Below, piece after piece: positions 8,551 to 32,173 of a stretch of DNA of 42,675 nucleotides. Position numbers and translations under genes: made by a program. Numbering within the stretch: the stretch's first letter is position 1; each line of letters starts with the position of its first letter. Where the stretch lies: positions 1 through 42,675 of the forward strand of contig JACWAN010000096.1 in the NCBI GenBank assembly GCA_014874255.1, given 5' to 3'. The notes under the pieces were generated by a model. The model ran no database searches. It had not been told where the DNA came from and saw nothing but the letters and a program-made list of their open reading frames with translations. This DNA is from Candidatus Woesearchaeota archaeon. Its GTDB lineage: Archaea; Nanobdellota; Nanobdellia; Woesearchaeales; UBA525.

Positions 8551-8665
8551 GCGGCCGCCGCGGAGAAATTGTCCTCCCTCCGGTCCGGGGCTTTGTCGGG
8601 CGCTCACCATAATGGCGCCGCGGCGCCATGTTCGCGTCCAGGTCTTGTTCCAAGGCGGCGGCCGC
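8551..8665 (-). repeat. Family A structured repeat, copy A1
   Basis: Reverse complement shares CCTTGGA...GCGAACAT and CGCCCGACAAAGCCCCGGACCGGAGGGAG...CTCCGC with 12809-12986 and 32025-32173; perfect 11-bp closing stem. Confidence 0.8.
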
Positions 8666-8770
8666 AGCGCTGAGTGTGCAGACTGCTCTTTGAAGATGGC
8701 CGTGTATTTCAGGGCGGATAGGAAATCAAGAAGAGAAAGGAAAATCTGAAAAAAAGGGTTTCTGGAGGCC

Positions 8771-8908
8771 TTACTCGTAGACCGACCAGATGCCGAAGAC
8801 GATGGCTACAATGGCACCGAGCGGAACAGCCCAGGAAGCCATCGACGTGTAGTACCCGAGGGCGAGCAAGCCGCCAACGGCCGCAACCCAACCAGTCCAT
8901 CTTGCCAT
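8771..8908 (-). CDS. 45-aa two-TM membrane microprotein (not in the ORF track)
   Basis: MARWTGWVAAVGGLLALGYYTSMASWAVPLGAIVAIVFGIWSVYE; GGGTGG SD, upstream TATATAT box (~8966-8973) and a T-rich tract downstream. Confidence 0.72.
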   Translation of the reverse strand: MARWTGWVAAVGGLLALGYYTSMASWAVPLGAIVAIVFGIWSVYE

Positions 8909-9111
8909 TATATACCACCCCATGGTTTTTTTGCAATATGTTTTCTCTCACTAAATCAAGAACCATATATATAGTTTCCGAAAAAAGGTTCGGAATCCGG
9001 ACAGGGATAAGGAAAAGAATCGCCTTTTCAGCTAAAATCTGTCTAGCTGCAGCCCGTCGTGGCGCCGCAATCATCCTCGCTAGCGTTCGGAGATTGTGGA
9101 TCCGACCTCGC

Positions 9112-12100
9112 TCAACTGCATCCGGTGGTCGCTCCACAATCCTCGCAGAGCGCGCAGCTCCCGTTCCGCTTCAGCCGCATCGACTGGCAGCCCGGGCATC
9201 TGTCCCCAGTATATCCTTTCGCCTTCGCCTCCGCGACTAAGCGTTCCTCTTCGGAGAGCACGCGTTCCGCCTTCTTCTTCGGCGCCTCTCCCGCACGTGC
9301 AGCGCGCGTCGGCTTGACCTCCTTCAGATGGACGAGGTCCTGGCGGCCGAGGTACTCATGGCCCAGCACCCGGTAGAGATAATCGACGGGTGACGTCGCG
9401 TTCTTGATGGCCGCGTCCCCGGTGACCGGCCCGCCGGGCGGGAAGTCAGTGAACGCGAACCGCTCCACCAGCTCTGAGAGCGGGATGCCGCGCTGCAGCG
9501 CGTAGCTGACGAGCTGGCTGTACGCGGCGAGCATGCCGCGGAACTCCTCAGGCTCCGCCTCCATGGATAATTCGACGGAACCGAGGCCGCCGTCCTGGTA
9601 TTCGGCGGTGAGGACCTGGACAGGCTTCCCGACGATGGCGGCAACGCGGACGACGCCTTCCCATTCCGGCGTGCCGACGTGCCGCGCGGCGATGCCGTGC
9701 TGCACCGCTTCCGGCGTCACGGCAGCTTCGTCCACGTCGTCCTCCTCGAACTGGCTCAAGTCCTCGGAGACGGTGTTGAGGGGCTGGCTCAGCTTCGAGC
9801 CGTCGCGGTAGAGCGCGTTCGCCTTGAGCATCAGCTTCCAGCTGAGCAGGTAGGCGTCCTCGATGTCCTTGAGCGTGGCCTCGTTCGGCATGTTGATCGT
9901 CTTGCTGATCGCGCCGCTGATGAACGGCTGGGCCGCGGCCATCGCCTTGATGTGCGCCTGGTACTCGAGGAACCGCTTCCCCTTCCGGCCGCACCGGTTC
10001 GCGCAGTCGAACACGGGCAGGTGCGCGTCCTTGAGGCCGGGCGCGCCCTCGAGCGTCATCGTGCCGCAGACGTACTCGTTCGCGGCCTCGATCTCCTCCT
10101 TGGAGAACCCGAGCGCGGCGAGGAGATTGAAGCTGGGGTCCTCATACTCCGCCTTCTTGAAGCCGAGCTTCTCGAGCGCCTTGTCGCCGAGCGTGAACCG
10201 GTTGAAGACGAAGCCGATGTCGAACGCGGCCGGCAACTGCTTCTCCGCGGCGACGAGCGCCTCTTCCGGCAGGCCTCTCTTCCGGAGCGCGTCGTGCGTC
10301 ACGCCCTTCTTCAGGCCGTCGAGCGTGCCGTGGCCGACCGCGTACGTGATGATCGCGTCGATCTCCTTCGACGGATAGCCGAGCTTCTTCAGCGCGGAAG
10401 GGACTGATTGGTTGATAATCTTGAAGTAGCCGCCGCCCGCGAGCTTCTTGAACTTGACGATGGCGAAGTCCGGCTCGATCCCCGTGGTGTCGCAGTCCAT
10501 GACGAGGCCGATCGTCCCGGTCGGCGCGAGGACGGTTGCCTGCGCGTTCCGGTAGCCGTGTTGTTCGCCCAGGCTGAGCGCCTCGTCCCAGCACGCCTTG
10601 GCCGCGGCGACGAGCGGCGCCGGACAGTGTTTCGGGTCGATGCCCATCGGCGTGACCGTCAGTCCCTCATACTCCGACTGCTTGGCGTTGTACGCCGCTC
10701 GCCGGTGGTTCCGGATGACACGGAGCATCTGCTCCTTGTTCTTCGCGTAGCCGGCGAACGCGCCCAGCGAGGCGGCCATCTCAGCGCTCGTCGCATACGA
10801 CTGGCCGGTCAGGATGGCGGTGACCGCGCCGATGAAGCCGCGCGCCTCGTCGCTGTCGTACGGGACGCCGGCGCGCATCAGCGCGCTGCCGATGTTCGCG
10901 TACCCGAGTCCCAAGGAACGGAACCGGTAGCTGAGCCGCGCCATCGGCTCGCTCGGGAACTGGGCCATGAGGACGCTGATCTCGAGCACGATCGTCATGA
11001 GCCGCACGGCGTGCCGGAACGCGTCCACGTCGAGCGTCCCGTCCTCCTTGAGGAACTTGACGACGTTGATGCTGGCGAGGTTGCACGCGGTGTCGTCGAG
11101 AAAGAGGTACTCGCTGCACGGATTTGACGCGTTGATCCTCCCGTCCGCGGGGCAAGTGTGCCACTCGTTGATTGTCGTGTCGTACTGGACGCCCGGGTCG
11201 GCGGAGTGCCACGCGGCGAGGCAGACCTTGTTCCAGAGGTCGCGCGCCTTGAGCGTCCGCCACTTCCCGCCGTCCGTGCGCTTGATCAGGTCCCACTCCC
11301 CGTCGTCCTCGACCGCCTTGAGGAACGCGTTCGGGATCCGGACCGTGTTGTTGGCGTGCTGTCCCGCCACGGTCTGGTAGGCCTCGCCTTCGTAGTGCGT
11401 GTCGAACACCTTGAAATCAGGGTCGTAGATCCCTTGCTCTCCGAGCTGGATGATTCGGAAGACGTAGTTGAGGGGGACGCCGAGCCGCTTCGCGTCCCTG
11501 ATCGCGTTCTTGAGCGCAGGGTTCGTGTTCCAGTTCGCGCCCGCTTTCGCCGCTTCTGCGACCTTCGTGAGCGCCGCCTTGGAGACCCTGCTGCCCGCGA
11601 CCAGGTCCGCCACTTTCTGCTCCTCGCGGTACTTCCACATGATGAAGGTCTCGATCTCCGGGTGGTCCATGTCGAGGCAGACCATCTTCGCCGCCCTTCT
11701 GGTGGTGCCGCCGGACTTGATCGCGCCCGCGCCCGCGTCGAAGAGCTTGAGGAAGCTCATCAATCCCGAGGAGGTGCCTCCTCCGCTGAGCGGCTCGCCC
11801 TTTCCCCTGAGCCGGGAGAAGTTGCTTCCCGTGCCGCTCCCGTACTTGAAGATGCGCGCTTCCCGGATCGCGAGGTCGAAGATGCCGCCTTCGTTGACGA
11901 GGTCGTCCCGCAAGGATTGGATGAAGCACGCGTGCGGCTGCGGCCGCGTGTACGCGTCCTCACTCTTCCTCGTCTCGCCGGTCGCGGGATCCGCGTAGTA
12001 GTGGCCCTGCGGGCTGCCGGTGATGCCGTACGCCCACGCCAGTCCGGTGTTGAACCATTGCGGCGAGTTCGGCGCCGTCATCTGGCTGAGGAGCATGAAC

Positions 12101-12495
12101 GCGAGCTCGTCATAGAACGCCTGCGCGTCCTGTTCGCTGGCGAAGTAGCCGTGGTTCTCGCCCCAGCTGCGCCAGCATCCGGCAAGGCGGTGCGCCACCT
12201 GCTTCACGCTCGTCTCGGAGCCGAGGACCGGCTTGCCGTCCGGCCCCTTCTTCATGTTCCCGTGCTCGTCTTTCTGCGGCACGCCCGCCTTGCGGATGTA
12301 CTTCTGCGCGAGGATGTCCGTGGCGAGCTGGCTCCACCCGGTCGGCACTTCCACGCCCTTGATTTCGAAGACGACGCTCCCGTCAGGGTTCCTGATGACC
12401 GAGTCGCGCCGCTCGTAGCTGAACCGTGCGTAGGGGTCCTTCCCCTCTTCCGTGAACATCCGCTTGACCGAGAGACCTTTCGAGACCATGACCAT
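9112..12495 (-). CDS. nrdJ: Adenosylcobalamin-dependent (class II) ribonucleotide reductase with intact active site and C-terminal TSCPD-like and Zn-ribbon domains
   Basis: PNSPQWFNTG, PQPHACFI (reducing Cys), ASNPCSEY (N-C-E), TACNLAS (second reducing Cys), APTGTIG, AISKTINMP, LYRDGSK, terminal CPGC..CALCEDCGATTGCS. GGTGG SD before ATG 12495; no ATP cone. Confidence 0.95.
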   Translation of the reverse strand: MVMVSKGLSVKRMFTEEGKDPYARFSYERRDSVIRNPDGSVVFEIKGVEVPTGWSQLATDILAQKYIRKAGVPQKDEHGNMKKGPDGKPVLGSETSVKQVAHRLAGCWRSWGENHGYFASEQDAQAFYDELAFMLLSQMTAPNSPQWFNTGLAWAYGITGSPQGHYYADPATGETRKSEDAYTRPQPHACFIQSLRDDLVNEGGIFDLAIREARIFKYGSGTGSNFSRLRGKGEPLSGGGTSSGLMSFLKLFDAGAGAIKSGGTTRRAAKMVCLDMDHPEIETFIMWKYREEQKVADLVAGSRVSKAALTKVAEAAKAGANWNTNPALKNAIRDAKRLGVPLNYVFRIIQLGEQGIYDPDFKVFDTHYEGEAYQTVAGQHANNTVRIPNAFLKAVEDDGEWDLIKRTDGGKWRTLKARDLWNKVCLAAWHSADPGVQYDTTINEWHTCPADGRINASNPCSEYLFLDDTACNLASINVVKFLKEDGTLDVDAFRHAVRLMTIVLEISVLMAQFPSEPMARLSYRFRSLGLGYANIGSALMRAGVPYDSDEARGFIGAVTAILTGQSYATSAEMAASLGAFAGYAKNKEQMLRVIRNHRRAAYNAKQSEYEGLTVTPMGIDPKHCPAPLVAAAKACWDEALSLGEQHGYRNAQATVLAPTGTIGLVMDCDTTGIEPDFAIVKFKKLAGGGYFKIINQSVPSALKKLGYPSKEIDAIITYAVGHGTLDGLKKGVTHDALRKRGLPEEALVAAEKQLPAAFDIGFVFNRFTLGDKALEKLGFKKAEYEDPSFNLLAALGFSKEEIEAANEYVCGTMTLEGAPGLKDAHLPVFDCANRCGRKGKRFLEYQAHIKAMAAAQPFISGAISKTINMPNEATLKDIEDAYLLSWKLMLKANALYRDGSKLSQPLNTVSEDLSQFEEDDVDEAAVTPEAVQHGIAARHVGTPEWEGVVRVAAIVGKPVQVLTAEYQDGGLGSVELSMEAEPEEFRGMLAAYSQLVSYALQRGIPLSELVERFAFTDFPPGGPVTGDAAIKNATSPVDYLYRVLGHEYLGRQDLVHLKEVKPTRAARAGEAPKKKAERVLSEEERLVAEAKAKGYTGDRCPGCQSMRLKRNGSCALCEDCGATTGCS

Positions 12496-12569
12496 CGTAC
12501 CACCGTCGCTGCATGCCCTGTCGCTGCTGCCCGCCTCCCGGACGGTCCCCTTCCTGCCGTCCCGGCGAG

Positions 12570-12617
12570 ACACAAGATGTTGTGGTTCGTCGAGAATCCA
12601 CACCCTATATGTGCCGT
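12570..12617. promoter_or_regulatory. Tandem NrdR-box-like operators upstream of nrdJ
   Basis: ACACAAGATGTTGTGG (12570-12585) and ACCCTATATGTGCCGT (12602-12617) versus consensus acaCwAtATaTwGtgt; starts 32 bp apart. Confidence 0.7.
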
Positions 12618-12635
12618 TCCGAGACGGCCCCCGAG

Positions 12636-12645
12636 TTTTATAAAG
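12636..12645 (-). promoter_or_regulatory. Archaeal TATA box of nrdJ
   Basis: CTTTATAAAA on the minus strand, an AT island in GC-rich DNA. Confidence 0.65.
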
Positions 12646-12808
12646 ATTATTGTCTCGCAACGTATACGTTGACGGGGATGGAAAGGAAATCCCGTTCCGT
12701 TTCTCCGCTCACACCCCTTCGATTCGCGAGGGAAAGGTGACGAAAGGACGGCCCAACATCCCTTCCCTACCTCTCTTCCCGACATCTCGTCCCTACAGCT
12801 CTTCTCAT

Positions 12809-12986
12809 GAGGAATGCCGCCTTGGATTCGTGCCGGGCGCGAACATGGCCGAGCGTTTTTGCGAGACTCGTGTTCGGAGAACGCGAGGATCGAGAACGAA
12901 GCGTAGCTGAGCGACCGAGGCCATAATCGTAATCGCCCGACAAAGCCCCGGACTGGAGGGAGAATAGATTCTCCGCGGCATTCTTC
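12809..12986 (+). repeat. Family A structured repeat, copy A2
   Basis: Same conserved blocks as A1 and A3; closing stem GAGGAATGCCGC/GCGGCATTCTTC; long variable arm closed by ATGGCC/GGCCAT. Confidence 0.8.
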
Positions 12987-13028
12987 GGACTAACGACGAA
13001 ACACAGTTATTTTTCAATCAAGAATCCT

Positions 13029-15041
13029 CTACGACTCCTTCGCGAGCTGCTTCGTCCGCTTCCGGAGGAAGGTGTCCAAGGCGAGGATCATCCGCTCCTT
13101 CGAGGGGGTGTCGAGCTTCCGCGCCAGCGACTTCTCCTTCAGCTCGTTCCGGACCCAGAGCGCCACGGGGTTCTGGCCCTCCTTGCCCTGCGCGAGCGCC
13201 GCCTCGAACTCCGCGCGCGTCATCGCGTCGAGCGCCGCCTGGAGGTCGAAGAGGTCGCGCACCTCGCGCTCGCCGAGCAGCAGCGGCTTCGCCTGCTTCG
13301 CCGCCTGGGCGAACGCGTTCGCCGCGAGGTCCTTGGAACGCTGCCGGAAATAGCGCGCCTTGAAGCTCCGCTGGACGCCGAGGATGAGGAGGAAGAGCAC
13401 GAGGATGGCCGCGGCGAGCACGCCGATCTTGCCCGGTACGTACTGGATCCTCAGGCCGAAGAGCATGGACTGCTTGAGGAGCTCGCTCAGCACGACGTAC
13501 GGGTTGTACGCGCTCAGCGTCCGCACGATCGCGTTCATCGACTCCAGCGGCAGGACCAGGTTGCTGATGAAGAGGAAGACGCTCCCGATGCTGAGCGAGG
13601 AGATCATCGCCGCCTCCTGCGTGCCGGCGAGATAGCCGATGATCATGCCGAGGAACGAGAAGAGCGTGATCGCGATGGAGATGATGACGACGCTCACCCC
13701 GAAGTTCGCGAACAGCGGGGCTTTCACGAAGAAGTAGCTGATGCCGAGGATGACGCACGCCTGCACCATGAGGACCAGGAAGGTCGTGACGAAGCTGAGC
13801 AGCACGTGGTACTCGTCCCTCGTCGCCGTCGTGAAGTTCCGGAACGCGGCCTTGCTCGTCTTGTCCATCACGATGAGCGTGCTGCTCAGCATGAGGCCGA
13901 GGAACATGATGACGAGCATCAGGATGTACGGGTAGGTGAACGTGAGCTTCGAGTCCTCGGCGTTCACCGCCTGGATGCGCGTCGTGATGGGGGAGGCGAC
14001 GCTGCCCGCGCTCGTGCCGAGCGACTCCTGGAGCGATTCGTCCGTGTGCTGGAGCGTGCCCTGGAGCGTGGCGAGTTTGCCTCTCGTGGCCGTGAGGAGC
14101 GCCTTCGTCTGCCCGAGCCCCGCGTCCGCCTCCTGGGACGCGTTGACCAGCTCGCCGAACCGCTCCTGCACCTGCTGCATCGACGTCGCTGCCTGGTCGA
14201 TGATGTCGGAGACCTGCGACGCGGCGTCCGGCGCGGCGTCCGCCACCTGCGCGAGCTGCTCGCTCTCGTTCTGGAGCTGGAGGATGGTCGCGTCGATCTC
14301 GTCGCGGGTCGCGTTCTCCGCCTGATTGCGCGCGTCCTGCAGCGTCGTGACCGCCTGGTCGATGGCGTCGCTGCCCTGCTGCTTCACCTGAGTCACGATC
14401 CCGGCGAGGCCGTTCACCCTCCCCCTGATCTGGAGGAGGTCGACGTAGGAGACGTTCACGTCCACGCCTTCGAGCGCGCTCTGCCCCTGGCCGAGCTGGC
14501 CGATGGCGGCGCCGAGGTCCTGGTCGATGGACGCTGCGGCCGCGCGCTGGCTGTGAATCTGCTGCTGCGCGACCGCGACGCGCTGGAGCATCGTGCCTGC
14601 CAGGTTCTCGCTGATCGCGCTGCTCTGGATGTCGAGCTGCTTGCTCAAGCCGTCGATGATCTGGTAGACAAGGTTGATCCTCGAGTAATCCACCGCGAAC
14701 GTCACGGTGTTGGTGCCGTTCTCCTTGACGCTGAAGTCCGCAGGGAAGAGGATACAGGTATGCACCTCTCCCGTCTTGATCCGGTCGGTGCACTCCGTCT
14801 CGTTCGCGAAGACGTTCACCTGGTAGTTCTGCGCCTTGAGCGTGTCGATGACGCTGTTCACGAGCGGCGTGTACTCGGGCGCATGGACGCCGACGACGAT
14901 CTGGCCCTTCTCGCTGCCGCCCGTGTAGGCGGCGCTGACGAGGAGGATGATGAGGAGCGGGCCGAAGATGATGGTGAAGGCGCTCTCCCGCGAGCGGAAG
15001 AGGAGCTTGAGGTTCTTCGCGATGACGGCCGGCCATTTCAT
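13029..15041 (-). CDS. ABC-2 type exporter permease with a long extracellular coiled coil and a C-terminal cytoplasmic (DUF5752-like) domain
   Basis: KNLKLLFRS..FTIIFGPLLIILL N-terminal TM, Q/A-rich heptads, C-terminal TM bundle with SNLVLPLE..YNPY, tail VRDLFDL...NPVALWVRNELKEKSLARKL. Confidence 0.85.
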   Translation of the reverse strand: MKWPAVIAKNLKLLFRSRESAFTIIFGPLLIILLVSAAYTGGSEKGQIVVGVHAPEYTPLVNSVIDTLKAQNYQVNVFANETECTDRIKTGEVHTCILFPADFSVKENGTNTVTFAVDYSRINLVYQIIDGLSKQLDIQSSAISENLAGTMLQRVAVAQQQIHSQRAAAASIDQDLGAAIGQLGQGQSALEGVDVNVSYVDLLQIRGRVNGLAGIVTQVKQQGSDAIDQAVTTLQDARNQAENATRDEIDATILQLQNESEQLAQVADAAPDAASQVSDIIDQAATSMQQVQERFGELVNASQEADAGLGQTKALLTATRGKLATLQGTLQHTDESLQESLGTSAGSVASPITTRIQAVNAEDSKLTFTYPYILMLVIMFLGLMLSSTLIVMDKTSKAAFRNFTTATRDEYHVLLSFVTTFLVLMVQACVILGISYFFVKAPLFANFGVSVVIISIAITLFSFLGMIIGYLAGTQEAAMISSLSIGSVFLFISNLVLPLESMNAIVRTLSAYNPYVVLSELLKQSMLFGLRIQYVPGKIGVLAAAILVLFLLILGVQRSFKARYFRQRSKDLAANAFAQAAKQAKPLLLGEREVRDLFDLQAALDAMTRAEFEAALAQGKEGQNPVALWVRNELKEKSLARKLDTPSKERMILALDTFLRKRTKQLAKES

Positions 15042-16102
15042 CTGCGTCCGCCTCCCTCATCCTTCTTTTCCTTCGCATTCGCCGCCTGTTCCGCGCCGCC
15101 CTTCCCTTCGCCGTTCTCAAGGCCTTCTTTCGGCTGCTGCGTGCCGTTCTTGTAGATGCTCACGAAGACGTCGTCCAGGTTCGGCTTGTTGAGCCTGATG
15201 TCGAGGAGCTGCTCGCCCGCCTTCTCGAGGAGCGTGAGCACCTCCTTGATGATCCGCTCCGGCTCCTCGGTCCGGATGGTGAGATAGGTGCCTTGCCGCG
15301 CCACCCCGGTGATGTTCTTCCCCTTCAGCTTCGGCACGATCTTCGCGTAGCTGCCAGGGTAGCTCTCCACCATGATCTCCTGCTCCTTGTTGTACTTGAG
15401 CTTCAGCTTGTCCGGCGTGTCGACGTCGACGAGCCGGCCGTCCTTGACGATCGCGATCCGGCTGCAGAGCGTGTCCAGTTCGTTGAGGTGGTGGCTGCTC
15501 AGCACGACGGTGGTGCCGCGCATGTTGATGCGGCGCACGACCTCCCAGATCTGGTTGCGCAGCACGGGGTCGAGATCGGCCGTCGGCTCGTCCAGGATCA
15601 GGACGGCAGGGTTGTGGACCATGGCGCACGCGATGTCCAGCCGCCGCTTCATCCCGCCGCTCAGGTCCTTCGCCATGACGTACTGGCTCGCCTTGAGGCC
15701 CATCAACCGGAGGAGGACGTCGACGTTGGAGCGGATGGCGCGGCCGCTCAGGTCGTACATCTGCGCGAAGTACTCGAGGTTCTCCCGCACGGTGAGCTTC
15801 TCGTAGAAGCTGGGCGTCTGCGCCGCGAAGCCGTAGCTCTTGTTCACGACGAGCGGCTTCAGGAGGATGTTGAACGCGCGGCCGTTGCCTGCGGCGTCGT
15901 ACTGCGTGTAGGTCACCATGCCCCTGTCGGGCCGCAGGAACCCGACGAGCAGGTTCAGGAGCGTGGTCTTGCCGCTGCCCGAGGAGCCGATGATGCCGAG
16001 GATCTCCCCCTGCTCCACCTTGAGCGAGACGTCCCGCAGGACGTGGTTCTCGCCGAAGGACTTGGAGACGCCCCTCACCTCGAAGACGGCCCTCGACCCC
16101 AT
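15038..16102 (-). CDS. ABC transporter ATP-binding protein
   Basis: GSSGSGKTT, LSGGMKRR, LILDEPT, SSH; overlaps the permease start. Confidence 0.95.
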   Translation of the reverse strand: MGSRAVFEVRGVSKSFGENHVLRDVSLKVEQGEILGIIGSSGSGKTTLLNLLVGFLRPDRGMVTYTQYDAAGNGRAFNILLKPLVVNKSYGFAAQTPSFYEKLTVRENLEYFAQMYDLSGRAIRSNVDVLLRLMGLKASQYVMAKDLSGGMKRRLDIACAMVHNPAVLILDEPTADLDPVLRNQIWEVVRRINMRGTTVVLSSHHLNELDTLCSRIAIVKDGRLVDVDTPDKLKLKYNKEQEIMVESYPGSYAKIVPKLKGKNITGVARQGTYLTIRTEEPERIIKEVLTLLEKAGEQLLDIRLNKPNLDDVFVSIYKNGTQQPKEGLENGEGKGGAEQAANAKEKKDEGGGRR

Positions 16103-16207: not shown

Positions 16208-16338
16208 CATCATCGCCGCCGTCCACAGGGTGAGCGTCCCGGCCGAGAAAGAAGCGGGTGCGGCGGAGGTCGGCCCCTTCGGGGAGGACCCGCACCTTCG
16301 GGAAAAAAGCGGAGAGCGAACAGGACGCGGCGATGATG
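16208..16338 (+). repeat. Family C rod-hairpin repeat, copy C1
   Basis: CATCATCGCCG...CGGCGATGATG closing stem, apical CCCC-TTCG-GGG; colinear with the reverse complement of 28646-28778. Confidence 0.8.
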
Positions 16339-16347
16339 CGAAAAACA

Positions 16348-19600: not shown

Positions 19601-19604
19601 CGCC

Positions 19605-19769
19605 GGCTCTTCGGCAAATTCGCTTTGCGGTGTTGCCGGCTGCGACCCGTGTCGCTGTGTTCTTCGCGTCAGCGGAGCTCCCCGTAGGGGGCAACCCCCT
19701 CTCCTCCTTCGCTTCATTCTCTGCTACGGGTCGCCCTTTGGCCGGCAACACATCATTTGCCTAAGAGCC
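19605..19769 (-). mobile_element. MITE family B, copy B1 (165 bp)
   Basis: 15-bp TIR GGCTCTT(C/A)GGCAAAT; 9-bp TSD CATAGCGCC at 19596-19604 and 19770-19778. Confidence 0.92.
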
Positions 19770-19825
19770 CATAGCGCCGCAATCTTTATATTGCTCTCGG
19801 AATCCGCTCCGGACAGGTGGGGGCG

Positions 19826-24317: not shown

Positions 24318-24343
24318 CGGTCCCTAGATGGAGCGTTGTTCTT

Positions 24344-25594: not shown

Positions 25595-26503
25595 ATGAGG
25601 ATCCTCATCACCGGCGGCGCGGGCTTCATCGGCTCGAATCTGGCGGAGCACCTCCTCGCGAAAGGGCATGCCGTCACAGCGTTCGACAATCTGAGTTCCG
25701 GGAAGAAGGAGAACCTCCCTCCCGGAGCCGTGCTCATCAAGGGCGACGTCAGGGACACGAACGCGGTCGCGAACGCGATGGCGGGCCAGGACGCGGTCGT
25801 CCACCTGGCGGCGGAGGTCTTCGTCGCCAAGACGATCGAGGACCCTGCGCTCGCAGAGCAGGTGAACGTCCTCGGCACGATCAACGTCCTCCAGGCGGCC
25901 AGACAAGCGGGCGTCAAGAAGGCCGTCCTCGCTTCCAGCGCCGCCATCTACGGGGACGAACCGACCGTGCCGACGACGGAATCGGAACGGCCACGGCCGA
26001 TGAGCCCGTACGCGATCACGAAGCTTGCGATGGAGGACTACGCCGTGTTCTACGCATCCAACGGTTTGCCGACGTGCTGCCTCCGGTTCTTCAACGTCTA
26101 CGGGCCGAAGCAGGACCCGAAGAGCCAGTACTCGGCCGCGATCCCCGCGTTCATCACGCGCAGCCTGGAAGGCGAGCCGCTCACCGTCTACGGCGACGGC
26201 CTCCAGACGCGCGATTTCATCTCCGTCGGCGACGTCTGCCGCGCCGTCGAGCTTGCCTTGACGAAAGGGAGCGGCACGTGCAACGTCGCCACCGGGAAGA
26301 GCGTCACGGTCAAGGCGCTCGCCGGGATGATCGTCAGGCTCACCGGGAGCAAGAGCGCGATCGTCCACGCCCCCGCGCGCGCCGGCGACCCGCGGACGAG
26401 CCTCGCCGACGTCACAAAGGCGAAGAAACAGCTTGGTTTCGTCGCGGCGACGAGCCTCGAGGAAGGGCTGAAGAAGACGGTCGCGTCCTACAAGAAGCGT
26501 TGA
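25595..26503 (+). CDS. NAD-dependent epimerase (UDP-glucose/GlcNAc 4-epimerase-like)
   Basis: ITGGAGFIGS, ASSAAIYG, SPYAITK (YxxxK), RFFNVYGP, GDGLQTRDFI. Confidence 0.93.
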   Translation: MRILITGGAGFIGSNLAEHLLAKGHAVTAFDNLSSGKKENLPPGAVLIKGDVRDTNAVANAMAGQDAVVHLAAEVFVAKTIEDPALAEQVNVLGTINVLQAARQAGVKKAVLASSAAIYGDEPTVPTTESERPRPMSPYAITKLAMEDYAVFYASNGLPTCCLRFFNVYGPKQDPKSQYSAAIPAFITRSLEGEPLTVYGDGLQTRDFISVGDVCRAVELALTKGSGTCNVATGKSVTVKALAGMIVRLTGSKSAIVHAPARAGDPRTSLADVTKAKKQLGFVAATSLEEGLKKTVASYKKR

Positions 26504-26552
26504 GCCGCTGTTCGTCTTGGGTCTTCGCTCTTTTCTTTTTTTCTTATTCGTC

Positions 26553-26720
26553 GGCTCTTAGGCAAATGAGGTGTTGCCGGCCAAAGGGCGACCTGTAGCG
26601 ATAAGAAGAAGCGGAGAGTTGAGGGGGATGCCCCATCCGGGGCTTCAACGATGCAGCGAAGAACGCAGCGACACGGGTCGCAGCCGGCAACACCGTCGAA
26701 GGCGAATTTGCCTAAGAGCC
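26553..26720 (+). mobile_element. MITE family B, copy B2 (168 bp)
   Basis: Perfect 15-bp TIR GGCTCTTAGGCAAAT; 9-bp TSD TTATTCGTC at 26544-26552 and 26721-26729. Confidence 0.93.
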
Positions 26721-26874
26721 TTATTCGTCGCTGCACGAGCACGTACCGCAGTCGCTGCTGCTCCTGCGCACGAATCAAAGATTCGTTGCGCCGCTGTGCG
26801 CGGATATCGTCACGACGCGAGGAAGGACAGTGTCTCGTGCAGAAAAAGTCGCTTCTTAAAGAAAGACGGTCTGC

Positions 26875-27579
26875 TCAGCTCTTTATCTCCCGTCCTTTCC
26901 TGCGTTTCATCCGGATGATATCCCGCAGGATGCGGAACGCGCCGAAGACGGACTGTCCCTTCTGCGTGGCGTACTCGTCGTACGTGATCGTCACGGGCAC
27001 CTCGACGTGGCGCAGCCCTTTCAGCTTCACCTCGTAGACGATCTCCGAGGCGTGCGCCATCCGGTCCTGCGCGATCTCGATCTTCTCGGCAGCCGTCCGC
27101 GAGAGTGCGCGGAACCCGTTATGCACGTCCGTCAATTTGACGCCGAGGAGGACGCGCTCGACGAGAAGCGAGCCCTTGAGCGTGACCCATTTGTACCACG
27201 GGATGCCCGGCGCTTTCCCGAGGAAGCGCGAGCCGAGCGCGATGTCCGCCTCGCCGTTCAGGACGGGCGCGACCAATCGTTTGATCTCTGCCGCTTTGTG
27301 CTGGCCGTCGCCGTCGAACGTGACGATGACGTCCGCTCCTTTCTTGAGGGCCGCCCGGATGCCGGTCCGCAGGCTGGCGCCCTGGCCCTGGTTGACGGGA
27401 TGCCGGATGACGGTCGCGCCGGCCTTCCTCGCCGCCGCTCCGGTCTCGTCCTTGCTGCAGTCGTCCACGACGATGACGTCCCGGTAGCCGTGTTTCGCGA
27501 GGCCCTTGACGACCGTCGAGATCCGCTTCTCCTCGTTGTACGCGGCGACGACGATGAGGATGCGTGGCTTCGTCATCAT
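26875..27579 (-). CDS. GT2 glycosyltransferase (DPM1-like, lipid-phosphate sugar transferase)
   Basis: AYNEE, VVDDCSKD, NQGQGASL, TFDGDGQH, GSRF, TDVHNGFRA. Confidence 0.92.
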   Translation of the reverse strand: MMTKPRILIVVAAYNEEKRISTVVKGLAKHGYRDVIVVDDCSKDETGAAARKAGATVIRHPVNQGQGASLRTGIRAALKKGADVIVTFDGDGQHKAAEIKRLVAPVLNGEADIALGSRFLGKAPGIPWYKWVTLKGSLLVERVLLGVKLTDVHNGFRALSRTAAEKIEIAQDRMAHASEIVYEVKLKGLRHVEVPVTITYDEYATQKGQSVFGAFRILRDIIRMKRRKGREIKS

Positions 27580-28040
27580 TCAGCCTCCACCCCGCGTCGT
27601 ATCGTCGTGATCCGCTCTTCCGTCAGCGTGCGGACGAGACGCTTCATCTCCAGGACGAAATCGACGAGCGCTGCGTGGTCGAGCGGCACTTCCTTGTTTT
27701 TCAGGTAGTATTGGTTGTCAATGCGAAGCTCCTTGTCCGCGATGAGCATCGCCGCGGTCCCTTTCGTGAGCAGCCCTTCCTGTTCGAGGGCTTCTGCGAC
27801 GGCGAGCGTGCATTCGTGGATCTCCGATCGGATGCCGAGCCGCATCATCACCGCGTAGAACGCGAAATACTCACAGTAGTATTTCGTCGTGGCAAGCCAC
27901 ATCCGCGAGCGCCCTTCAATCCGTTCCAGTATTTCGAGCGTCTCCTCCGAGTTCCGGAGGTATTCCTGCGCGAGGTTCCCGTTCGGCCTGACGAGGCGGA
28001 TGCCCCTCTCTTTCTTCCTGCACCAGTCCAGCGTCACCAT
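27576..28040 (-). CDS. HEPN domain protein
   Basis: YYCEYFAFYAV..LGIRSEIHECT, KELRIDNQYY; coupled downstream of the MNT gene. Confidence 0.8.
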   Translation of the reverse strand: MVTLDWCRKKERGIRLVRPNGNLAQEYLRNSEETLEILERIEGRSRMWLATTKYYCEYFAFYAVMMRLGIRSEIHECTLAVAEALEQEGLLTKGTAAMLIADKELRIDNQYYLKNKEVPLDHAALVDFVLEMKRLVRTLTEERITTIRRGVEAE

Positions 28041-28594
28041 GCCAGCCACCGTACCGCATCCTCGCTCCCGCGGAGGAGCAGATGGTTCTTAATGATTTCG
28101 CGCTTCAGGGCGGAGGTTATCCGGTCGAACCGTTTGACGTGGATGAGATGGACCTCTTTCCGGTAGCGTTCGGAAAAGGCGGTGAACGGGATGCTCTCCC
28201 CAATGAGCAGCAGGTCGAGGTCGTGCGCTTTCTTGACGCTCGTGGTCGCGGAGCCGAAGAGGATCGCGGCCGTCCCGTCCGGGAGCTTCTCGCGGAGCAG
28301 CGTCACGAGCTCGAGGAGGAGCGGTTCCTCTTCGCAGCGCGCGAGCAGCTTTGTCTTCTCCGCGATGATGAGGTGCTCTGTCAGGCCGGGGTGCTCCTTG
28401 TTGAGTCGGAAGAACGTCATGTTTCCTTTCTGCCGCTTCTTGAGGATGCCGTCGGCGACGAGCGGCGCCAGCTTCAGCCGGAGCGTCGTGTGCGGCATCC
28501 CTTGCTCTTTCGCGAGCGCGGAGAGGTGGAGCTCCTCGTCCGGGTTTGAGAGGAACGGTTCGAGGACAGATTTTTCTGTCATTTTTTTGACCAT
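28034..28594 (-). CDS. HTH-fused minimal nucleotidyltransferase (MNT)
   Basis: N-terminal wHTH (ELHLSALAK..HTTLR..LVADGIL), then ILFGS.....DLDLLLI and EIIKNH. Confidence 0.85.
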   Translation of the reverse strand: MVKKMTEKSVLEPFLSNPDEELHLSALAKEQGMPHTTLRLKLAPLVADGILKKRQKGNMTFFRLNKEHPGLTEHLIIAEKTKLLARCEEEPLLLELVTLLREKLPDGTAAILFGSATTSVKKAHDLDLLLIGESIPFTAFSERYRKEVHLIHVKRFDRITSALKREIIKNHLLLRGSEDAVRWLAW

Positions 28595-28645
28595 TCTGTT
28601 AATATAATGACAATTACTATTTAAGATTGTCGGTTCGAGCAGGGG

Positions 28646-28778
28646 CATCATCGCCACGCCCGGTTCGCTCTCCGCTTCAGTCTCGGATAGTGCGGGTCCT
28701 CCCCGTAGGGGGCATCCCCGACCGCACTCGCTTCGTTCTTCGCTTCACCACTCACCCCTAAGGGCGGCGGCGATGATA
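28646..28778 (-). repeat. Family C rod-hairpin repeat, copy C2
   Basis: Reverse complement aligns to 16208-16338 (GGGTGAG, GAAGCG.GTGCGG, CGGGGAGGACCCGCAC, AAGCGGAGAGCGAAC, GGCGATGATG). Confidence 0.8.
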
Positions 28779-28828
28779 CCTGAGAGAAGAATGAAGAGAG
28801 AAAAATAAAAGCTGTTTTTCACTCAGGT

Positions 28829-31762
28829 TCACGCGAGGCCGAGCGCCTGCATCTTCGACCAGTCGACCTTCCAGACGATGATCCGCGTGCCCATGAAGTC
28901 CGTGACGTCGCTGAACTTCTGGAACGCGCCGGTGCCGTCGCCGTCGAGGAAGAAGAGCCGCGTGAAGAGCGAGCCGGCGTTCTCCGGCGCTGTCAGGAGG
29001 ACGCGCGGGTTCGCGGGGTCGCGCAGGTCGACGAGGAACGATTCGCCGAGCGTGCCGCCGGTCTCCACCGTCTCGACGGTGCCGTTCAGCGCGAGCACGA
29101 TGCTCGTCGGCCTGACGTCGTTGTTCTGCCCGGTGAGCTGGCCCTGGGCGTTGTAGAACCCGAGCGAGACGAAGGACCGGTTCACCGCGGACTCGTTCAG
29201 GACGAAGCCGTTGAGGACGATGTTCACGCCCTGCTGCTGGCCCACCTGGACGTTGAGCGTGCAGAGGTAGACGGAGTCGTTCTGCTGGGAGTGGACGCAG
29301 TTGCTCCACGAGGAGGACGGGTAGCCGGGCCACGGCGCGATCCAGTTGTTGACCGAGGTCTGGTCGCCGAGGGTCTGCAGCTGGTAGTAGAGGTTCTTCG
29401 CGTCCGCCTCGCTCAGGTTGTACTTCGCCGCCATCGCCGGGATCGCGGTGTCCTGCGGCTGGGCGCGGAAGTTGACGTACGCGTCGGCCCGCGTGAAGTT
29501 CCAGGAGCCGAAGTGGCCCCAGACGCCGCCCTTGCCGACCATGTCGCCGCTCGTGATGAAATAATCGTCCGGCGGCTGGCAGACCGTGTGGTTCAGCACG
29601 GTCTGCGCCTGTTCCTCTGAGAGGCCGTTGGCGAGGAGCGTCTGGTGCGCCTGCGCCGGCGGCATCATGATGATCCGCTTGGTGAGCATGATCGCTTGGT
29701 ACTGGTCGTGGCCGGGTAGGCCGTCCTGGACGTCCTGCGCGCCCTGGTAGTTGCCGCAGTCCATCATCCGGAGGATGCCGAGCGCCTCGGTCTCGTTCGG
29801 CGTGAGGAGCGCCTCGCCGATCCAGTGCGCGTCCGATCCCATCTGGGAGGCGCCGTCGAACGTGACCCGCCGGTCCGCGATGTCCTTGAACCAGTGGCCG
29901 AAGTCCCACCACGAGTTGATGATCGCGTCAGGCGCGGTGTTCTGCTTGATGTTCGTGAGCGTGTCGTACCATGGCTTCGTGATGATTGGCGCGGACTGCT
30001 GCCCGGCCTGGTAGCCCTGGATCGTGATCGGGATGAGCGCCAGCGAGAGGATGACGAAGAGCGCCGGCACGACCCACGCCTTCGAGAGGTTGAGATGCCC
30101 GACCAGCCAGTCCTTCAGGATGCTGTAGACCGCGCCGGCGGAGATGGCCGCTCCCACGATGAGCGGCGGGAGCACCATGATGATGAACCGGACGCCTTTC
30201 GTCATGGTGAAGATCGACGCTGCCAGCCAGACGGCGATGAAGATCGCGTACTTCACGTCGATGGCGCGGTCGTCCTTGAGGAGGAGGAGGCCGCCGACGA
30301 TGACCGGCAGGCCCATGACCGCGAGGAACCAGAGGATGGAGAGCGACGTGCCTGCCGGGGAGGTGAGGTAGAGGAAGACCGCGAGGCCGAAGCCGAGCAG
30401 CGTCCAATCCTTCCACCGCAGCTCTTTGCGCGGCACGAGGGAGAAGAGCATCCCCATCAGGCCGAGGATGAAGATGAGCTCGCCCCCGGTCGCGTTGACG
30501 ATGTCCGCGATGCTCGGCTGGTTCAGTTCAGCGACGGTGGTGAGGACGTTCGGCCAGATCTGCCCCGCCTGCGCCGCCGCCTTGAAGTCTGCGGTGACCG
30601 CGAACGCGCTGACCGGACCCTGGATGAAATTCGGGAGCCCGACGAAGAGCGCGATGAAGAGCCCGTCGACGATGAGGAAGCCGGCGAGCATGATGAGCGA
30701 CCACGTCACCTCCTTGTTCCTGGCGAGGCTCTTGAGGTCGCCTTTCTGGAGGAAGTGCCGCAGGACCTGGTAGATGAAATAGGAGACGACGACGATGAGG
30801 AAGATGTCGAAGAAGAACCACCAGTACCCCCACGTCAGGGCGAACAGCCCGAAGACGAGGCCGGAGGCGACGAGCCAGATGGAACGTTTGAGCCACGTCC
30901 CCGCTTCGAACGCCTCGAGGAAGAGCCACGCGATCGTGATGGGGAAGAAGAGCTGCAGTACGTGCGTCGACGCGTAGCCCGCTGCCGATTGGGTGATGTA
31001 CGACGGATGCACGGCGAGGAGCAGCGCGGCGAAGAAGCCTGCGAAGAGGCCTTCCCGCCAGCCCATGAAGAACGCGGGGATGACTGCGAGTGCCGCGAAC
31101 AGGAGGGGCATCCAGAAGAGGGTGTACATCGGCGTCGTCTGGAAGCCCAAGGCAGTTTCTGCCTTGTAGACGTACGCGGTGAACGTGGTGTACGCGTCCC
31201 AGTTCGTCGGGACGCCGAGCGGGGCGAGCATGTGCATGTTCCACGGCACCCCGTCGACCACCTTGTCGCCCGGGTACCCGTTCTTGACGATCTGCTCGAC
31301 CTTGAGGAGGTTGTAGTACGTGTCGATGTCCGGCAGGAGGGTGTGGCCGTTGCTGTCCTCCAGCTGCGACTTGAAGTAAGCCGCTGTTTGTGTGATCTGG
31401 CTGTCGATCTCCTTCTTGGTGGCGGGGTCCGCCAGCGCTTTCTGGTACTGCTGCGTGACGAGCTGCTGCTTGTTCGCCGACGGGAGGTTGGGGTACTGCT
31501 GGCTGATCTGCGCGCCGATAGAGTTCTGGATGTTCGCGTCGACCGAGCTCTTCGCCCATTGCTGCGTGACCGGCAGCCAGTACGTGGGGGCGCGGAACAG
31601 GACGGAGACGAGGAGGGGGAGGAGGAGGAGCGCGATGGTGAAGCCGACGACAATCTTCCGCTCGTGCCGCTCGACGAACGCGCCGGTCTTCTCGGCGAAC
31701 GCCGAGGGCTCGTGCCGCTTCGGCTTCTCCTTGCTCTCCGTCAGCAGTCTCTTGCGTGCCAC
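28829..31762 (-). CDS. aglB: Archaeal oligosaccharyltransferase (STT3 family)
   Basis: DIDTYY (DxD), TTVAEL (TIxE-like), SWWDFGHW (WWDYG motif), DG, DMVGK; many TMs; GTG start with GGGGTGG SD and TTTTAAA box. Confidence 0.95.
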   Translation of the reverse strand: MARKRLLTESKEKPKRHEPSAFAEKTGAFVERHERKIVVGFTIALLLLPLLVSVLFRAPTYWLPVTQQWAKSSVDANIQNSIGAQISQQYPNLPSANKQQLVTQQYQKALADPATKKEIDSQITQTAAYFKSQLEDSNGHTLLPDIDTYYNLLKVEQIVKNGYPGDKVVDGVPWNMHMLAPLGVPTNWDAYTTFTAYVYKAETALGFQTTPMYTLFWMPLLFAALAVIPAFFMGWREGLFAGFFAALLLAVHPSYITQSAAGYASTHVLQLFFPITIAWLFLEAFEAGTWLKRSIWLVASGLVFGLFALTWGYWWFFFDIFLIVVVSYFIYQVLRHFLQKGDLKSLARNKEVTWSLIMLAGFLIVDGLFIALFVGLPNFIQGPVSAFAVTADFKAAAQAGQIWPNVLTTVAELNQPSIADIVNATGGELIFILGLMGMLFSLVPRKELRWKDWTLLGFGLAVFLYLTSPAGTSLSILWFLAVMGLPVIVGGLLLLKDDRAIDVKYAIFIAVWLAASIFTMTKGVRFIIMVLPPLIVGAAISAGAVYSILKDWLVGHLNLSKAWVVPALFVILSLALIPITIQGYQAGQQSAPIITKPWYDTLTNIKQNTAPDAIINSWWDFGHWFKDIADRRVTFDGASQMGSDAHWIGEALLTPNETEALGILRMMDCGNYQGAQDVQDGLPGHDQYQAIMLTKRIIMMPPAQAHQTLLANGLSEEQAQTVLNHTVCQPPDDYFITSGDMVGKGGVWGHFGSWNFTRADAYVNFRAQPQDTAIPAMAAKYNLSEADAKNLYYQLQTLGDQTSVNNWIAPWPGYPSSSWSNCVHSQQNDSVYLCTLNVQVGQQQGVNIVLNGFVLNESAVNRSFVSLGFYNAQGQLTGQNNDVRPTSIVLALNGTVETVETGGTLGESFLVDLRDPANPRVLLTAPENAGSLFTRLFFLDGDGTGAFQKFSDVTDFMGTRIIVWKVDWSKMQALGLA

Positions 31763-31825
31763 ACAACCACCCCGCTTGGTTGTTTCCGGCAGCGACAGAC
31801 GATTTAAAAACTTAATGAAAAGGTT

Positions 31826-31990
31826 GGCTCTTAGGCAAATGGTGTGTCGCCAGCCAAAGGGCGAGGCATGCAAAGAAAACGGCGGAAGAGGTCGGGGGGT
31901 TGCCCCATCCGGGGGTGACCGGTGCAGTGACTTTCCGAGCGATTGCCGAGCAGCCGGAGACACCGCCGGAGGCGAATTCGCCTAAGAGCC
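31826..31990 (+). mobile_element. MITE family B, copy B3 (165 bp)
   Basis: TIR GGCTCTTAGGCAAAT / ATTCGCCTAAGAGCC; 9-bp TSD GAAAAGGTT at 31817-31825 and 31991-31999. Confidence 0.92.
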
Positions 31991-32024
31991 GAAAAGGTTC
32001 TTGTTAGGAAGTTCTCTTTCGAAG

Positions 32025-32173
32025 GGGCGCTGCCTTGGAACGATTTGCCGGGCGCGAGCATACTCGCTCCGTTCGTAGTGTTCGCTTCGCGAACAGATGC
32101 GGCCGCGGCCGCATAATCCTGAGCGTCCGACAATGCCCCGGACCGGAGGGAGGATAGATACTCCGCAGCACCC
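32025..32173 (+). repeat. Family A structured repeat, copy A3
   Basis: Conserved blocks as in A1 and A2; closing stem GGGCGCTGC/GCAGCACCC. Confidence 0.8.

Follow-up and report, generated by a model that had tools for sequence, protein, structure and literature searches.

A lineage-restricted family of three-armed structured repeats, possibly REP/BIME-like, in a Woesearchaeota genome

The window, a 42,675-nt stretch of DNA from Candidatus Woesearchaeota archaeon, carries three copies of a non-coding, intergenic element, one on the minus strand and two on the plus strand. A 26-nt core of the element occurs in all three copies (3/3) and nowhere else in the window, against 0.00 occurrences expected from 100 shuffles; the copies are therefore real and lie where a sequence-only reading of this DNA had placed them. 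Copy 1 is a minimal form, and its parts are listed together with those of copies 2 and 3.

8548..8670, minus strand: whole copy 1, a type A element in its minimal form (covariance model R1, 117.3 bits, E 2.1e-26)
8655..8665, minus strand: copy 1, 5' strand of closing helix P1, GCGGCCGCCGC, pairing with 8551-8561 (12 of 13 P1 pairs change on both sides; alignment A2, columns 7-19:126-138)
8649..8654, minus strand: copy 1, CUU bulge (8654-8652) and 5' strand GGA of helix P1b (8651-8649) (A2 columns 20-25)
8597..8640, minus strand: copy 1, inner domain of type A, containing P2, tandem G.A and P3 hairpin (helices 3 and 4 of the alignment)
8640-8634 with 8603-8597, minus strand: copy 1, helix P2
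8633-8632 with 8605-8604, minus strand: copy 1, tandem G.A, followed by two Watson-Crick pairs and a 4-nt bulge
8629-8612, minus strand: copy 1, P3 hairpin
8574..8587, minus strand: copy 1, core CGGACCGGAGGGAG, the short helix P4 closing the 12-nt loop GGACCGGAGGGA
8551..8564, minus strand: copy 1, 3' strand UCC of P1b (8564-8562) and 3' strand of P1, GCGGCGGCCGC (8561-8551)
12805..12988, plus strand: whole copy 2, a type A element whose P3 arm holds a nested hairpin module (R1, 90.8 bits)
12809-12820 with 12975-12986, plus strand: copy 2, P1; CUU bulge at 12821-12823; core at 12949-12962
32018..32178, plus strand: whole copy 3, a type A element whose P3-arm insert is a different one (R1, 69.1 bits)
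32025-32033 with 32165-32173, plus strand: copy 3, P1 with one C.A; CUU bulge at 32034-32036; core at 32139-32152

The closing stem differs in sequence among the copies yet always pairs, as had been claimed, over a perfect 11 bp in copy 1, 12 bp with one G.U in copy 2 and 9 bp with one C.A mismatch in copy 3. Copy 1 has a 12-nt hairpin as its central arm P3; in copy 2, this arm extends to about 75 nt and holds a nested hairpin module that recurs in other copies of the family. The P4 helix of copy 1 consists of a C-G pair followed by the pair at positions pre-2:post+1 relative to the core. Single copies fold better than their shuffled counterparts, with z values of -3.0, -4.0 and -2.2.

Across the family, the frame of the element is the closing helix P1, which spans 9-19 bp (median 13 bp) and has a copy-specific sequence; in the innermost 10 nt of P1, most copies have a sequence of their own, and the most frequent 10-mer is shared by 4 of 77 copies. 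P1 ends at a nearly universal junction, 5'-GC[CUU]GG...NCC-GC-3', in which a 3-nt bulge precedes the 3-bp helix P1b. Two arms emanate inside the junction, an exchangeable inner domain and the hairpin P4, whose loop displays GGACCGGAGGGA in the source genome. The inner domain is of type A (P2, tandem G.A and P3), or of type C or D, and extra hairpin modules sit in the P3 loop, before P4 and after P4. This three-armed fold is strongly supported by covariation. In the alignment, 94.1% of the cells are paired compared with 76.1% in shuffles, a value reached by 0 of 500 shuffles, and 22 of the 29 pairs change on both sides, which bears out the earlier description of a conserved junction whose stems vary freely yet stay paired. 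In helices 3 and 4 of the inner domain, 96.8% and 98.8% of the cells are paired, with changes on both sides in 8/9 and 1/4 pairs, respectively. The stems are long and GC-rich, and 1079 of 1222 stem cells are Watson-Crick. G.U exceeds A.C in the stems (49 versus 30 in 45 copies), in an alignment that was fitted to the model and leans toward G.U.

The two short helices are supported by individual columns. In copy 1, the GGN of P1b pairs with the NCC at 8562-8564. P1b is paired in all 21 aligned copies, and its variable pair (A2 column 25:123) is A-U in 9, C-G in 9, and G-C, G.U and U.G in one copy each. The hairpin that had been proposed between GGAG and CTCC must be redrawn accordingly: CTCC pairs with the 5' GGA that follows the CUU bulge, not with GGAG. 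GGAG never varies across the 21 copies and finds no partner in the GGCC or CGCC present in about half of the copies; thus, the GGAG/CTCC pairing is not general. In P4, the pair pre-2:post+1 is U-A in 60 of 90 copies, C-G in 20, C.A in 6, U.G in 3 and A.A in 1, with the highest mutual information (0.40) among the column pairs scanned. In relatives, 39 of 43 J regions fold into a hairpin of 4 bp or more, the stems being unrelated, and the P4 loop sequence varies freely. The tandem G.A is invariant in the 21 aligned copies of the source genome and is kept in most of the displayed type-A copies of relatives. The bulged junction is the only part conserved across the wider family.

Several known motifs and alternative architectures were considered and discarded. 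A search with Rfam 15, including twister, hammerhead, HDV-like, hatchet, pistol, HEARO and IS605-orfB RNAs, gave no match at gathering score and 12 matches at E up to 10, none of them on the three copies, in agreement with the earlier reading, which did not recognize the motif. Neither Rfam nor the pairing pattern confirmed resemblances to twister, HDV-like ribozymes, the sarcin-ricin loop 'GGACCGGAG', the K-turn and the bulge-helix-bulge. A K-turn has a 3-nt bulge directly followed by tandem sheared G.A and A.G, whereas here two Watson-Crick pairs that covary (columns 43:80 and 44:79) lie between the tandem G.A and a 4-nt bulge, which does not fit the L7Ae-binding form. A pseudoknot between GAGG of the P4 loop and CCUU at the bulge could form in the source genome, and one relative has CCGU with ACGG; however, several relatives carry ACCG, GGA or UCU loops, so that this interaction is not general. 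The right-hand sequences beginning GTTCCGG and ACTCTGG, considered as an IS inserted after GGAGGGAG, are hairpin expansions within the element, behind which the frame closes. No 'empty frames' that might be pre-existing targets were found, the shortest frames (81-84 nt) being complete elements.

Covariance model R1, built and searched as had been suggested, finds 117 matches in the source genome (1.29 Mb, 81.5% complete), a density of ~90 per Mb. Simpler searches agree on a large family: 17 core matches with at most three mismatches, 95 matches to a looser core versus 10 for a reversed control, and 166 frames in a structure-based scan versus 32 in the reversed-genome control. The elements occur as single units of 110-400 nt among housekeeping genes, for example RNR and STT3, and occupy roughly 1-3% of the genome; the longer forms hold only extra hairpin modules and no ORFs. 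The distribution among kin is patchy, with R1 copy numbers from 0 to 117. R1 copies are present in 6 of 7 genomes of the same genus and 5 of 9 of a second genus; none were found in one congener, in several genomes of the same family or in the other families of the order (0/22). A scan of 185,579 species yielded 23 loci in 5 Woesearchaeota MAGs, while the other 61 loci were single matches, and 0 of the 57 tested matched R1. Among the genomes scanned, the repeat family is thus found only in one Woesearchaeota family. Several contigs of the source genome and of a sister genome end in or beside an element; in practical terms, the elements break assemblies.

The sister genome, with ~91% DNA identity to the source genome, provides a view of turnover at individual sites. 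Both flanks could be mapped for 16 of its elements, and 15 of these 16 sites are also occupied in the source genome; most sites are old and common to the two. The content of the sites is different. Some orthologous sites differ in inner type (A versus C), part of P1 also differs, and just 1 of 15 orthologous pairs has an intact core that is identical in both genomes, whereas paralogs within one genome stay alike. Copies are overwritten in place. On contig C100, nearly identical inner parts lie within different P1 frames in two copies and, conversely, one P1 (GGAATGCCGC) encloses different inner parts. Shared sites with differing modules and cores suggest concerted evolution, and the pattern agrees with module replacement or with gene conversion between ectopic copies. 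Degeneration and truncation affect many copies. At the site of copy 2, the sister genome retains a 57-nt remnant, and the same form of remnant occurs in one contig of sequencing run X4; at the site of copy 3, the spacer of the sister genome is unalignable, and no clean boundary was seen. Neither a clean empty-versus-filled pair nor an excision product was seen in the sister genome or in contigs of four DNA sequencing runs. In 6 congeners, a syntenic spacer separates the upstream 700-aa gene from the RNR gene, and R1 finds no match in it, which marks a gain in the source lineage. Purifying selection on orthologous copies was not found, given the single intact core among 15 pairs and the inner modules swapped in some. 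The overwriting in place, the decay and the deletions argue against a function required at each locus.

No enzyme that might mobilize the elements was found in the source genome, and at 81.5% completeness its gene may be missing from the assembly. The sole Y1/HUH gene is truncated at its N-terminus (a 116-aa ORF covering profile positions 46-120 of 121) and is located in a low-GC island beside a tRNA; the only elements near it are a degenerate copy of type C, ~1 kb upstream, and a partial match of 17 bits at the contig end. Y1 genes are present in 2 of 12 element-bearing genomes and in one family member without elements, all of these genomes being incomplete. The source genome encodes one reverse transcriptase, presumably of the DGR type as judged by its motif, and a reverse transcriptase is present in 4 of the 12 element-bearing genomes. 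Both candidates were rejected as mobilizers, the Y1 protein as truncated and unlinked to the elements and the reverse transcriptase as DGR-like and not co-distributed with them. The TnpB zinc ribbon has no match in the source genome. The linkage to Y1/IS200, reverse transcriptase or TnpB genes that had been proposed as a check is thus not seen. Nor was an intact single-copy RAYT flanked by elements found, or a parent IS with the same ends among the longer forms and TnpB. The direct repeats flanking 77 copies do not exceed a mismatched-flank control, and P1 differs between copies; with neither target site duplications (TSD) nor fixed terminal inverted repeats found, the elements are not classic MITEs, as had been recognized at the outset.

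The orientation of the elements relative to neighboring genes is near random. The upstream neighbor lies on the same or the opposite strand in 33 and 25 cases and the downstream neighbor in 32 and 27, such that elements are intergenic in all configurations. No promoter-like (TATA-like) peak was found at a fixed distance upstream, and runs of at least five T show no excess downstream (16/77) over upstream (18/96). The element strand coincides with local GC skew in 42 of 70 cases and with the strand that carries most of the nearby genes in 25 of 70; these trends were given no weight because they are weak, at odds with the neighbor counts and based on crude gene calls.

The best reading of these data, held with about even confidence, is that the three elements belong to a REP/BIME-like family of selfish structured repeats: lineage-restricted, non-coding, non-autonomous and structure-dependent, an archaeal counterpart of the bacterial REP/BIME/REPIN-type selfish palindromic DNA. 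The high copy number and the covarying fold, the lack of signs of a gene-linked or autonomous transcription unit, the patchy distribution within one lineage, the gain in the RNR spacer and the turnover in place speak for it. BIMEs are mosaic combinations of modules, as are the elements described here. REP elements are high-copy, extragenic and hairpin-forming, with compensatory changes in their arms (PMC3116915), and the Woesearchaeota family shares these properties, being short, extragenic and devoid of coding capacity, with ~100 copies or more that take up about 1-3% of the genome, hairpin-forming with compensatory changes, and largely persisting by vertical descent at fixed sites. The Woesearchaeota element is a three-way junction of 110-400 nt rather than a 20-40-bp palindrome or inverted doublet, its closing helix is copy-specific rather than conserved, it has no conserved GTAG/CGTC-type tag, and no intact single-copy RAYT (Y1 HUH) was found that is flanked by the elements or co-distributed with them. 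An HUH-nuclease (REP-like) substrate was one of three roles offered by the sequence-only reading and fits best of the three; however, the nuclease itself was not found in intact form.

Other mobile systems provide partial parallels. Integron attC sites and IS200/IS605 ends are single-stranded DNA hairpins read by shape and extrahelical bases; there, too, structure is kept, the stems are free in sequence and the base of the hairpin carries a small conserved bulge, a pattern that by analogy would fit recognition of a folded single strand. Unlike attC sites, the elements lie outside cassette arrays, between housekeeping genes, and unlike IS200/IS605 ends, they are accompanied by no TnpB and only the truncated Y1 gene. 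They resemble prokaryotic and archaeal MITEs in being non-autonomous, intergenic, taxon-specific and terminally inverted-complementary, and differ from them in having terminal inverted repeats that change from copy to copy and an interior whose structure is conserved and whose modules are exchangeable; nor are TSD or a parent IS seen. One census gives 105 cMITEs/Mb for 'a Woesearchaea genome' (PMC11602168), close to the density of R1 matches reported here. The Rickettsia palindromic elements are likewise dense, lineage-specific hairpin repeats with covarying stems in small-genome, host-dependent microbes, whereas the present sequence and fold are specific to one Woesearchaeota family.

If the elements are REP-like, one strand, as single-stranded DNA or as a transcript, would have to fold before a copy could be propagated, or repaired from another one. 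Variants unable to fold would then fail to spread, and the covariation would follow; the bulged junction would be the likely recognition site of a putative trans-acting enzyme. Against this reading count the missing mobilizing enzyme and the absence of TSD, excision products and clean empty/filled pairs in the material searched. The three-way junction with its conserved tandem G.A is more elaborate than any REP and typical of RNA, the excess of G.U over A.C is expected of a strand-specific, wobble-tolerant structure, and concerted evolution also occurs in RNA gene families.

The fold and the G.U excess also speak for the principal alternative, namely that the elements make up a large family of structured RNAs functioning at the RNA level, the dispersed copies being genes or cis-elements themselves. 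Such RNAs could, for example, stabilize or insulate neighboring transcripts, or serve as decoys or scaffolds for a putative RNA-binding protein that would read the tandem G.A, the CUU bulge or the purine-rich P4 loop. The very strong covariation of a multi-helix junction, the near-invariance of the tandem G.A, the G.U excess, the folding of single copies beyond shuffles and the sites kept between two species all agree with it. However, near-random orientation, the lack of promoter-like or T-run signals at a fixed distance, copy numbers of 0 to 117 among close kin with none in one congener, the rarity of identical cores at orthologous sites among many decayed copies, and a P4 loop that is not conserved in sequence across the wider family make a role as RNA somewhat unlikely.

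The elements might instead be DNA sites used by the host, at which chromosomal proteins such as a topoisomerase, a nucleoid protein or replication and recombination factors bind or extrude the hairpins, the role proposed for BIMEs in E. coli. Their even spread over all types of intergenic spacer in either orientation, the occupancy of 15/16 sites kept between species while the content is replaced, and the long, GC-rich, mostly Watson-Crick stems agree with such a use, but the complete lack of copies in a congener and in several genomes of the same family, and the restriction of the sequence common to all copies to a short bulged junction, render it improbable. The least probable explanation is an element mobile or processed at the RNA level, either a ribozyme, as had also been suggested, an intron-like unit cut by the splicing endonuclease at the bulge-helix junction and possibly circularized, or a retro-mobile unit: the frame base, where a short helix adjoins a 3-nt bulge, loosely resembles bulge-helix-loop splice motifs and the source genome has its one reverse transcriptase, but no self-cleaving Rfam family matches even at E up to 10, the supposed invariant core is a hairpin loop that varies in relatives, the helix after the bulge has 3 bp rather than 4, a second 3-nt bulge is absent, and the DGR-type-looking reverse transcriptase occurs in only 4/12 element-bearing genomes.

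DPANN archaea have very small genomes, and roughly 1-3% of the DNA is here devoted to one structured repeat family. Persistent intragenomic replicators of the REPIN kind were not detected in Archaea according to a preprint; a REPIN-like nature of the family would extend this class to Archaea and, because the usual RAYT is missing, would indicate a new structure-reading enzyme. As an RNA family, it would represent a new three-way-junction fold with more than 100 genomic copies. In their strongest form both prospects are doubtful: either the first archaeal REPIN-like 'replicator', more than 100 vertically inherited three-way-junction elements that would be copied without a RAYT, in a structure-dependent manner, into occupied sites through module exchange at the bulged junction by a putative enzyme, or more than 100 expressed structured RNAs of a new fold. 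Under either reading, the overwriting of modules at orthologous sites makes this uncultivated archaeon a tractable case for the concerted evolution of non-coding DNA.

The three element copies in the window were confirmed by direct reading of the sequence, as the sequence-only reading had placed them, and three occurrences of their common 26-nt core were counted in the window, versus 0.00 expected from 100 shuffles.

Element copies in the window
8548–8670, minus strand: copy 1
12805–12988, plus strand: copy 2, with one extra hairpin module in P3
32018–32178, plus strand: copy 3

Folding of copies 1–3 is more stable than that of shuffled sequences (z of −3.0, −4.0 and −2.2, respectively). An alignment of 21 short copies (A2) yielded a consensus of 29 pairs, in which 94.1% of the cells are paired versus 76.1 ± 1.1 in shuffles and 22 of the 29 pairs exhibit changes on both sides. 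All 500 shuffles fall short of these values, and sliding the partners by 1–3 columns, as a control, lowers the pairing to 26–53%.

Components of the element fold
P1: closing helix, median 13 bp, 9–19 bp in most copies, sequence copy-specific
CUU: unpaired stretch between P1 and P1b
P1b: 5′ GGN pairs with 3′ NCC (A-U 9, C-G 9, others 3), paired in 21/21
Joining stretch: variable, after P1b
Type A inner domain: P2 (7 bp), tandem G·A/A·G, two covarying Watson-Crick pairs, then a 4-nt 3′-strand bulge and hairpin P3
Type C inner domain: covarying hairpin, loop CGAUUCAUGCAG
Type D inner domain: third form
P4 (studied genome): 2-bp helix comprising an invariant C-G and the pair pre-2:post+1, closing the 12-nt loop GGACCGGAGGGA

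The copy-specific P1, supported by covariation in the alignment, bears out the earlier proposal that the closing stem differs between copies yet pairs. The tandem G·A/A·G of type A is without variation across the 21 aligned copies. The P4 pair pre-2:post+1 exhibits the highest mutual information among all scanned pairs (n = 90: U-A 60, C-G 20, C·A 6, U·G 3, A·A 1). The GGAG/CTCC hairpin that had also been proposed is not upheld: GGAG is invariant, the partner of the 3′ CTCC is the 5′ GGA, and copies with GGCC or CGCC are unable to form the GGAG/CTCC pairing, which is therefore not general.

The inner domain adopts at least three forms, types A, C and D, and extra hairpin modules sit inside the P3 loop, 5′ of P4 and 3′ of P4. 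An inserted IS was considered for two right-hand sequences and rejected, as both are hairpin expansions and the frame closes beyond them. Among relatives, P4 takes the form of a plain 4–10 bp hairpin with stems unrelated in sequence and loops of 3–12 nt, and 39 of 43 distinct joining regions of relatives fold to at least 4 bp. Because the P4 stems and loops vary among relatives, the 'invariant core' of the sequence-only reading holds for the dominant subfamily of the studied genome and fails in the wider family, where conservation is limited to P1 and the bulged junction GC[CUU]GG / NCC-GC.

The elements match no Rfam family: copies 1–3 give no hit at the gathering score, and the 12 weak window matches obtained with E up to 10 all lie outside them. 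The one noteworthy match among the 12 is a C/D-box sRNA-like sequence with boxes C, D′, C′ and D at window 485–542 (minus strand; Rfam sR1, 30.8 bits, gathering score 45, E 0.0004), a match consistent with an archaeal genome. The window is one entire contig of a 1.29 Mb assembly (122 contigs, 61.7% G+C, completeness 81.5%). In this genome the core has 17 matches with up to three mismatches versus 0 with the reversed control, and a 13-nt core with at most one mismatch has 95 versus 10 with the reversed pattern. The covariance model that had been called for (R1, from the 21-copy alignment), run on the genome and its relatives, revealed a large family, with positives in 12 of 41 genomes including the one studied. 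The latter contains at least 117 matches at E ≤ 0.001, a count that rests on 150 scored out of ~1,550 first-look candidates. A structure-only scan (CCYYGG ... CC, enclosed by 8 or more contiguous pairs) identified 166 frames versus 32 in the reversed genome, amounting to an uncorrected 2.9% of the genome, and no 'empty frame' lacking inner content was found in the genome.

Six of the seven other genomes of the same genus are R1-positive, with 5–78 copies, and one has none; five of nine genomes in a second genus are positive, with 1–23 copies. Two further genera of the same family and 22 other families within the order yielded no R1 match. An exact-pattern scan covering 185,579 species, with one genome each, returned 84 stretches. 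Five MAGs bearing the label Candidatus Woesearchaeota account for 23 of them, the remaining 61 being single matches in unrelated bacteria, mostly GC-rich. R1 matched 5/5 of the Woesearchaeota loci tested and 0/57 of the others tested. The sequencing runs X1–X3, which contain window DNA, are labelled mine drainage metagenome. A literature search on repetitive intergenic elements of Woesearchaeota found no papers, and among the papers listed on palindromic repeats of Woesearchaeota none describes such elements by title or abstract; a MITE census gives a density of 105 cMITEs per Mb for 'a Woesearchaea genome', the elements being undescribed in its passage on that genome (PMC11602168).

The suggested linkage to TnpA-REP/IS200, reverse transcriptase or TnpB genes did not emerge. 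The profile search found no TnpB Zn-ribbon domain in the studied genome and one Y1_Tnp match, a 116-aa ORF covering profile positions 46–120 only. Y1 occurs in 2/12 element-bearing genomes and in one element-free family member, and the ortholog in the sister genome G006 contains a TAG. The single reverse transcriptase of the studied genome (400 aa; stretch L039 1183–2385, minus strand, G000:C109) contains an LGNWTSQ motif, which we take to be typical of DGR reverse transcriptases. Reverse transcriptase genes occur in 4/12 element-bearing genomes, and no link to the elements was found, the type-A element nearby lying ~1.1 kb away. With Y1 truncated and sparse, reverse transcriptase sparse and TnpB not found, no mobiliser is identified; all genomes compared are incomplete. 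At stretch L038 505–1779 (G000:C103), an intron-bearing tRNA-like gene is followed by a low-GC island with a methyltransferase and the N-terminally truncated IS200-type Y1 gene; the island is probably a remnant of an integrated element.

According to our own crude gene calls, the upstream neighbour is on the same/opposite strand as the element in 33/25 cases and the downstream neighbour in 32/27, and element-bearing spacers are 14 divergent, 14 convergent and 27 tandem. No TATA-like peak occurs at a fixed upstream distance, and T-runs are not enriched 3′ of the elements (downstream 16/77 versus upstream 18/96). Direct repeats at the flanks are not above the mismatched-flank control, in agreement with the TSD-free ends noted earlier.

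The order of an upstream 700-aa gene followed by RNR is kept in six congeners (~72% protein identity), and R1 has no match in their spacers between the two genes; thus copies 1 and 2 were gained in the lineage of the studied genome and G006. The RNR upstream region (window 12640–12675 and orthologous spacers, five or more genomes in the genus) has a TATA-like box followed by the near-palindrome AACGTATACGTT, possibly a conserved operator for RNR. In G003, the RNR upstream spacer contains four tandem 27-nt purine-rich units where the element would be (stretch L069 ~1150–1320). In congener G001, the RNR gene lies in a 1516-aa open frame (L074/L076, G001:C75) with a ~1-kb gap between matched parts, which may correspond to an intein-like insertion.

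G006 and the studied genome share ~91% DNA identity. The G006 copy-1 site contains a type-C copy, and the copy-2 site retains only a 57-nt remnant, the 3′ part of the frame, with the same form on a contig of run X4. The copy-3 site, where the spacer alignment is not clean, is without the element and the adjoining TIR-type MITE. This MITE, immediately 5′ of copy 3 at window ~31826–31990, is a repeat different from the elements, and its terminal inverted repeats, GGCTCTTAGGCAAAT ... CCTAAGAGCC, are 15 bp long. Window ~5201–8476 (~3.3 kb, five predicted genes) is missing at the orthologous G006 place, the homologs of 4814–5201 and 8476–9027 adjoining on G006:C29. Repeats of other families, with many G006 matches, are at window 16208–16343, 19604–19770, 26542–26724 and 28644–28785.

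For the reverse comparison 23 G006 elements were taken, 16 with both flanks on one contig of the studied genome. Fifteen of these 16 sites are occupied there (13 R1 matches and, by alignment, two type-C copies), and the remaining one holds a different repeat. Type A is opposite type C at two orthologous sites, P2 and part of P1 differ in blocks of compensating changes, and only one of 15 orthologous pairs has an intact core that is the same in both genomes. A one-base insertion variant in six copies of the studied genome is missing in their G006 orthologs. Within the studied genome, near-identical inner parts are enclosed by differing P1 frames, and a single P1 sequence surrounds different inner parts. 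From the shared sites with swapped content and the similar paralogs it follows that the sites are old, that paralogs overwrite their content (concerted evolution) and that individual copies decay.

A putative RNA function would accord with the elaborate three-way junction, the tandem G·A motif and the stem cells of 45 distinct copies (1079 Watson-Crick, 49 G·U, 30 A·C, 64 other), where the excess of G·U over A·C is modest and the model-fitted alignment is biased toward G·U. However, such a function is less likely in view of the random orientation, missing transcription signals, patchy copy number, decay and overwriting. The elements are not classic MITEs, as already argued from the sequence, for they have neither conserved TIRs nor a TSD. 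Membership in the REP/BIME/REPIN family proper was also rejected, because a conserved palindrome, doublets and a RAYT are lacking. Nonetheless, the elements and that family share a hairpin with compensatory changes, documented for REP-type elements in a paper whose relevant part does not decide between ssDNA and mRNA as the folded form (PMC3116915). The features that speak against an RNA function suggest, at about even confidence, that the elements are selfish DNA of REP/BIME/REPIN type that depends on its structure.
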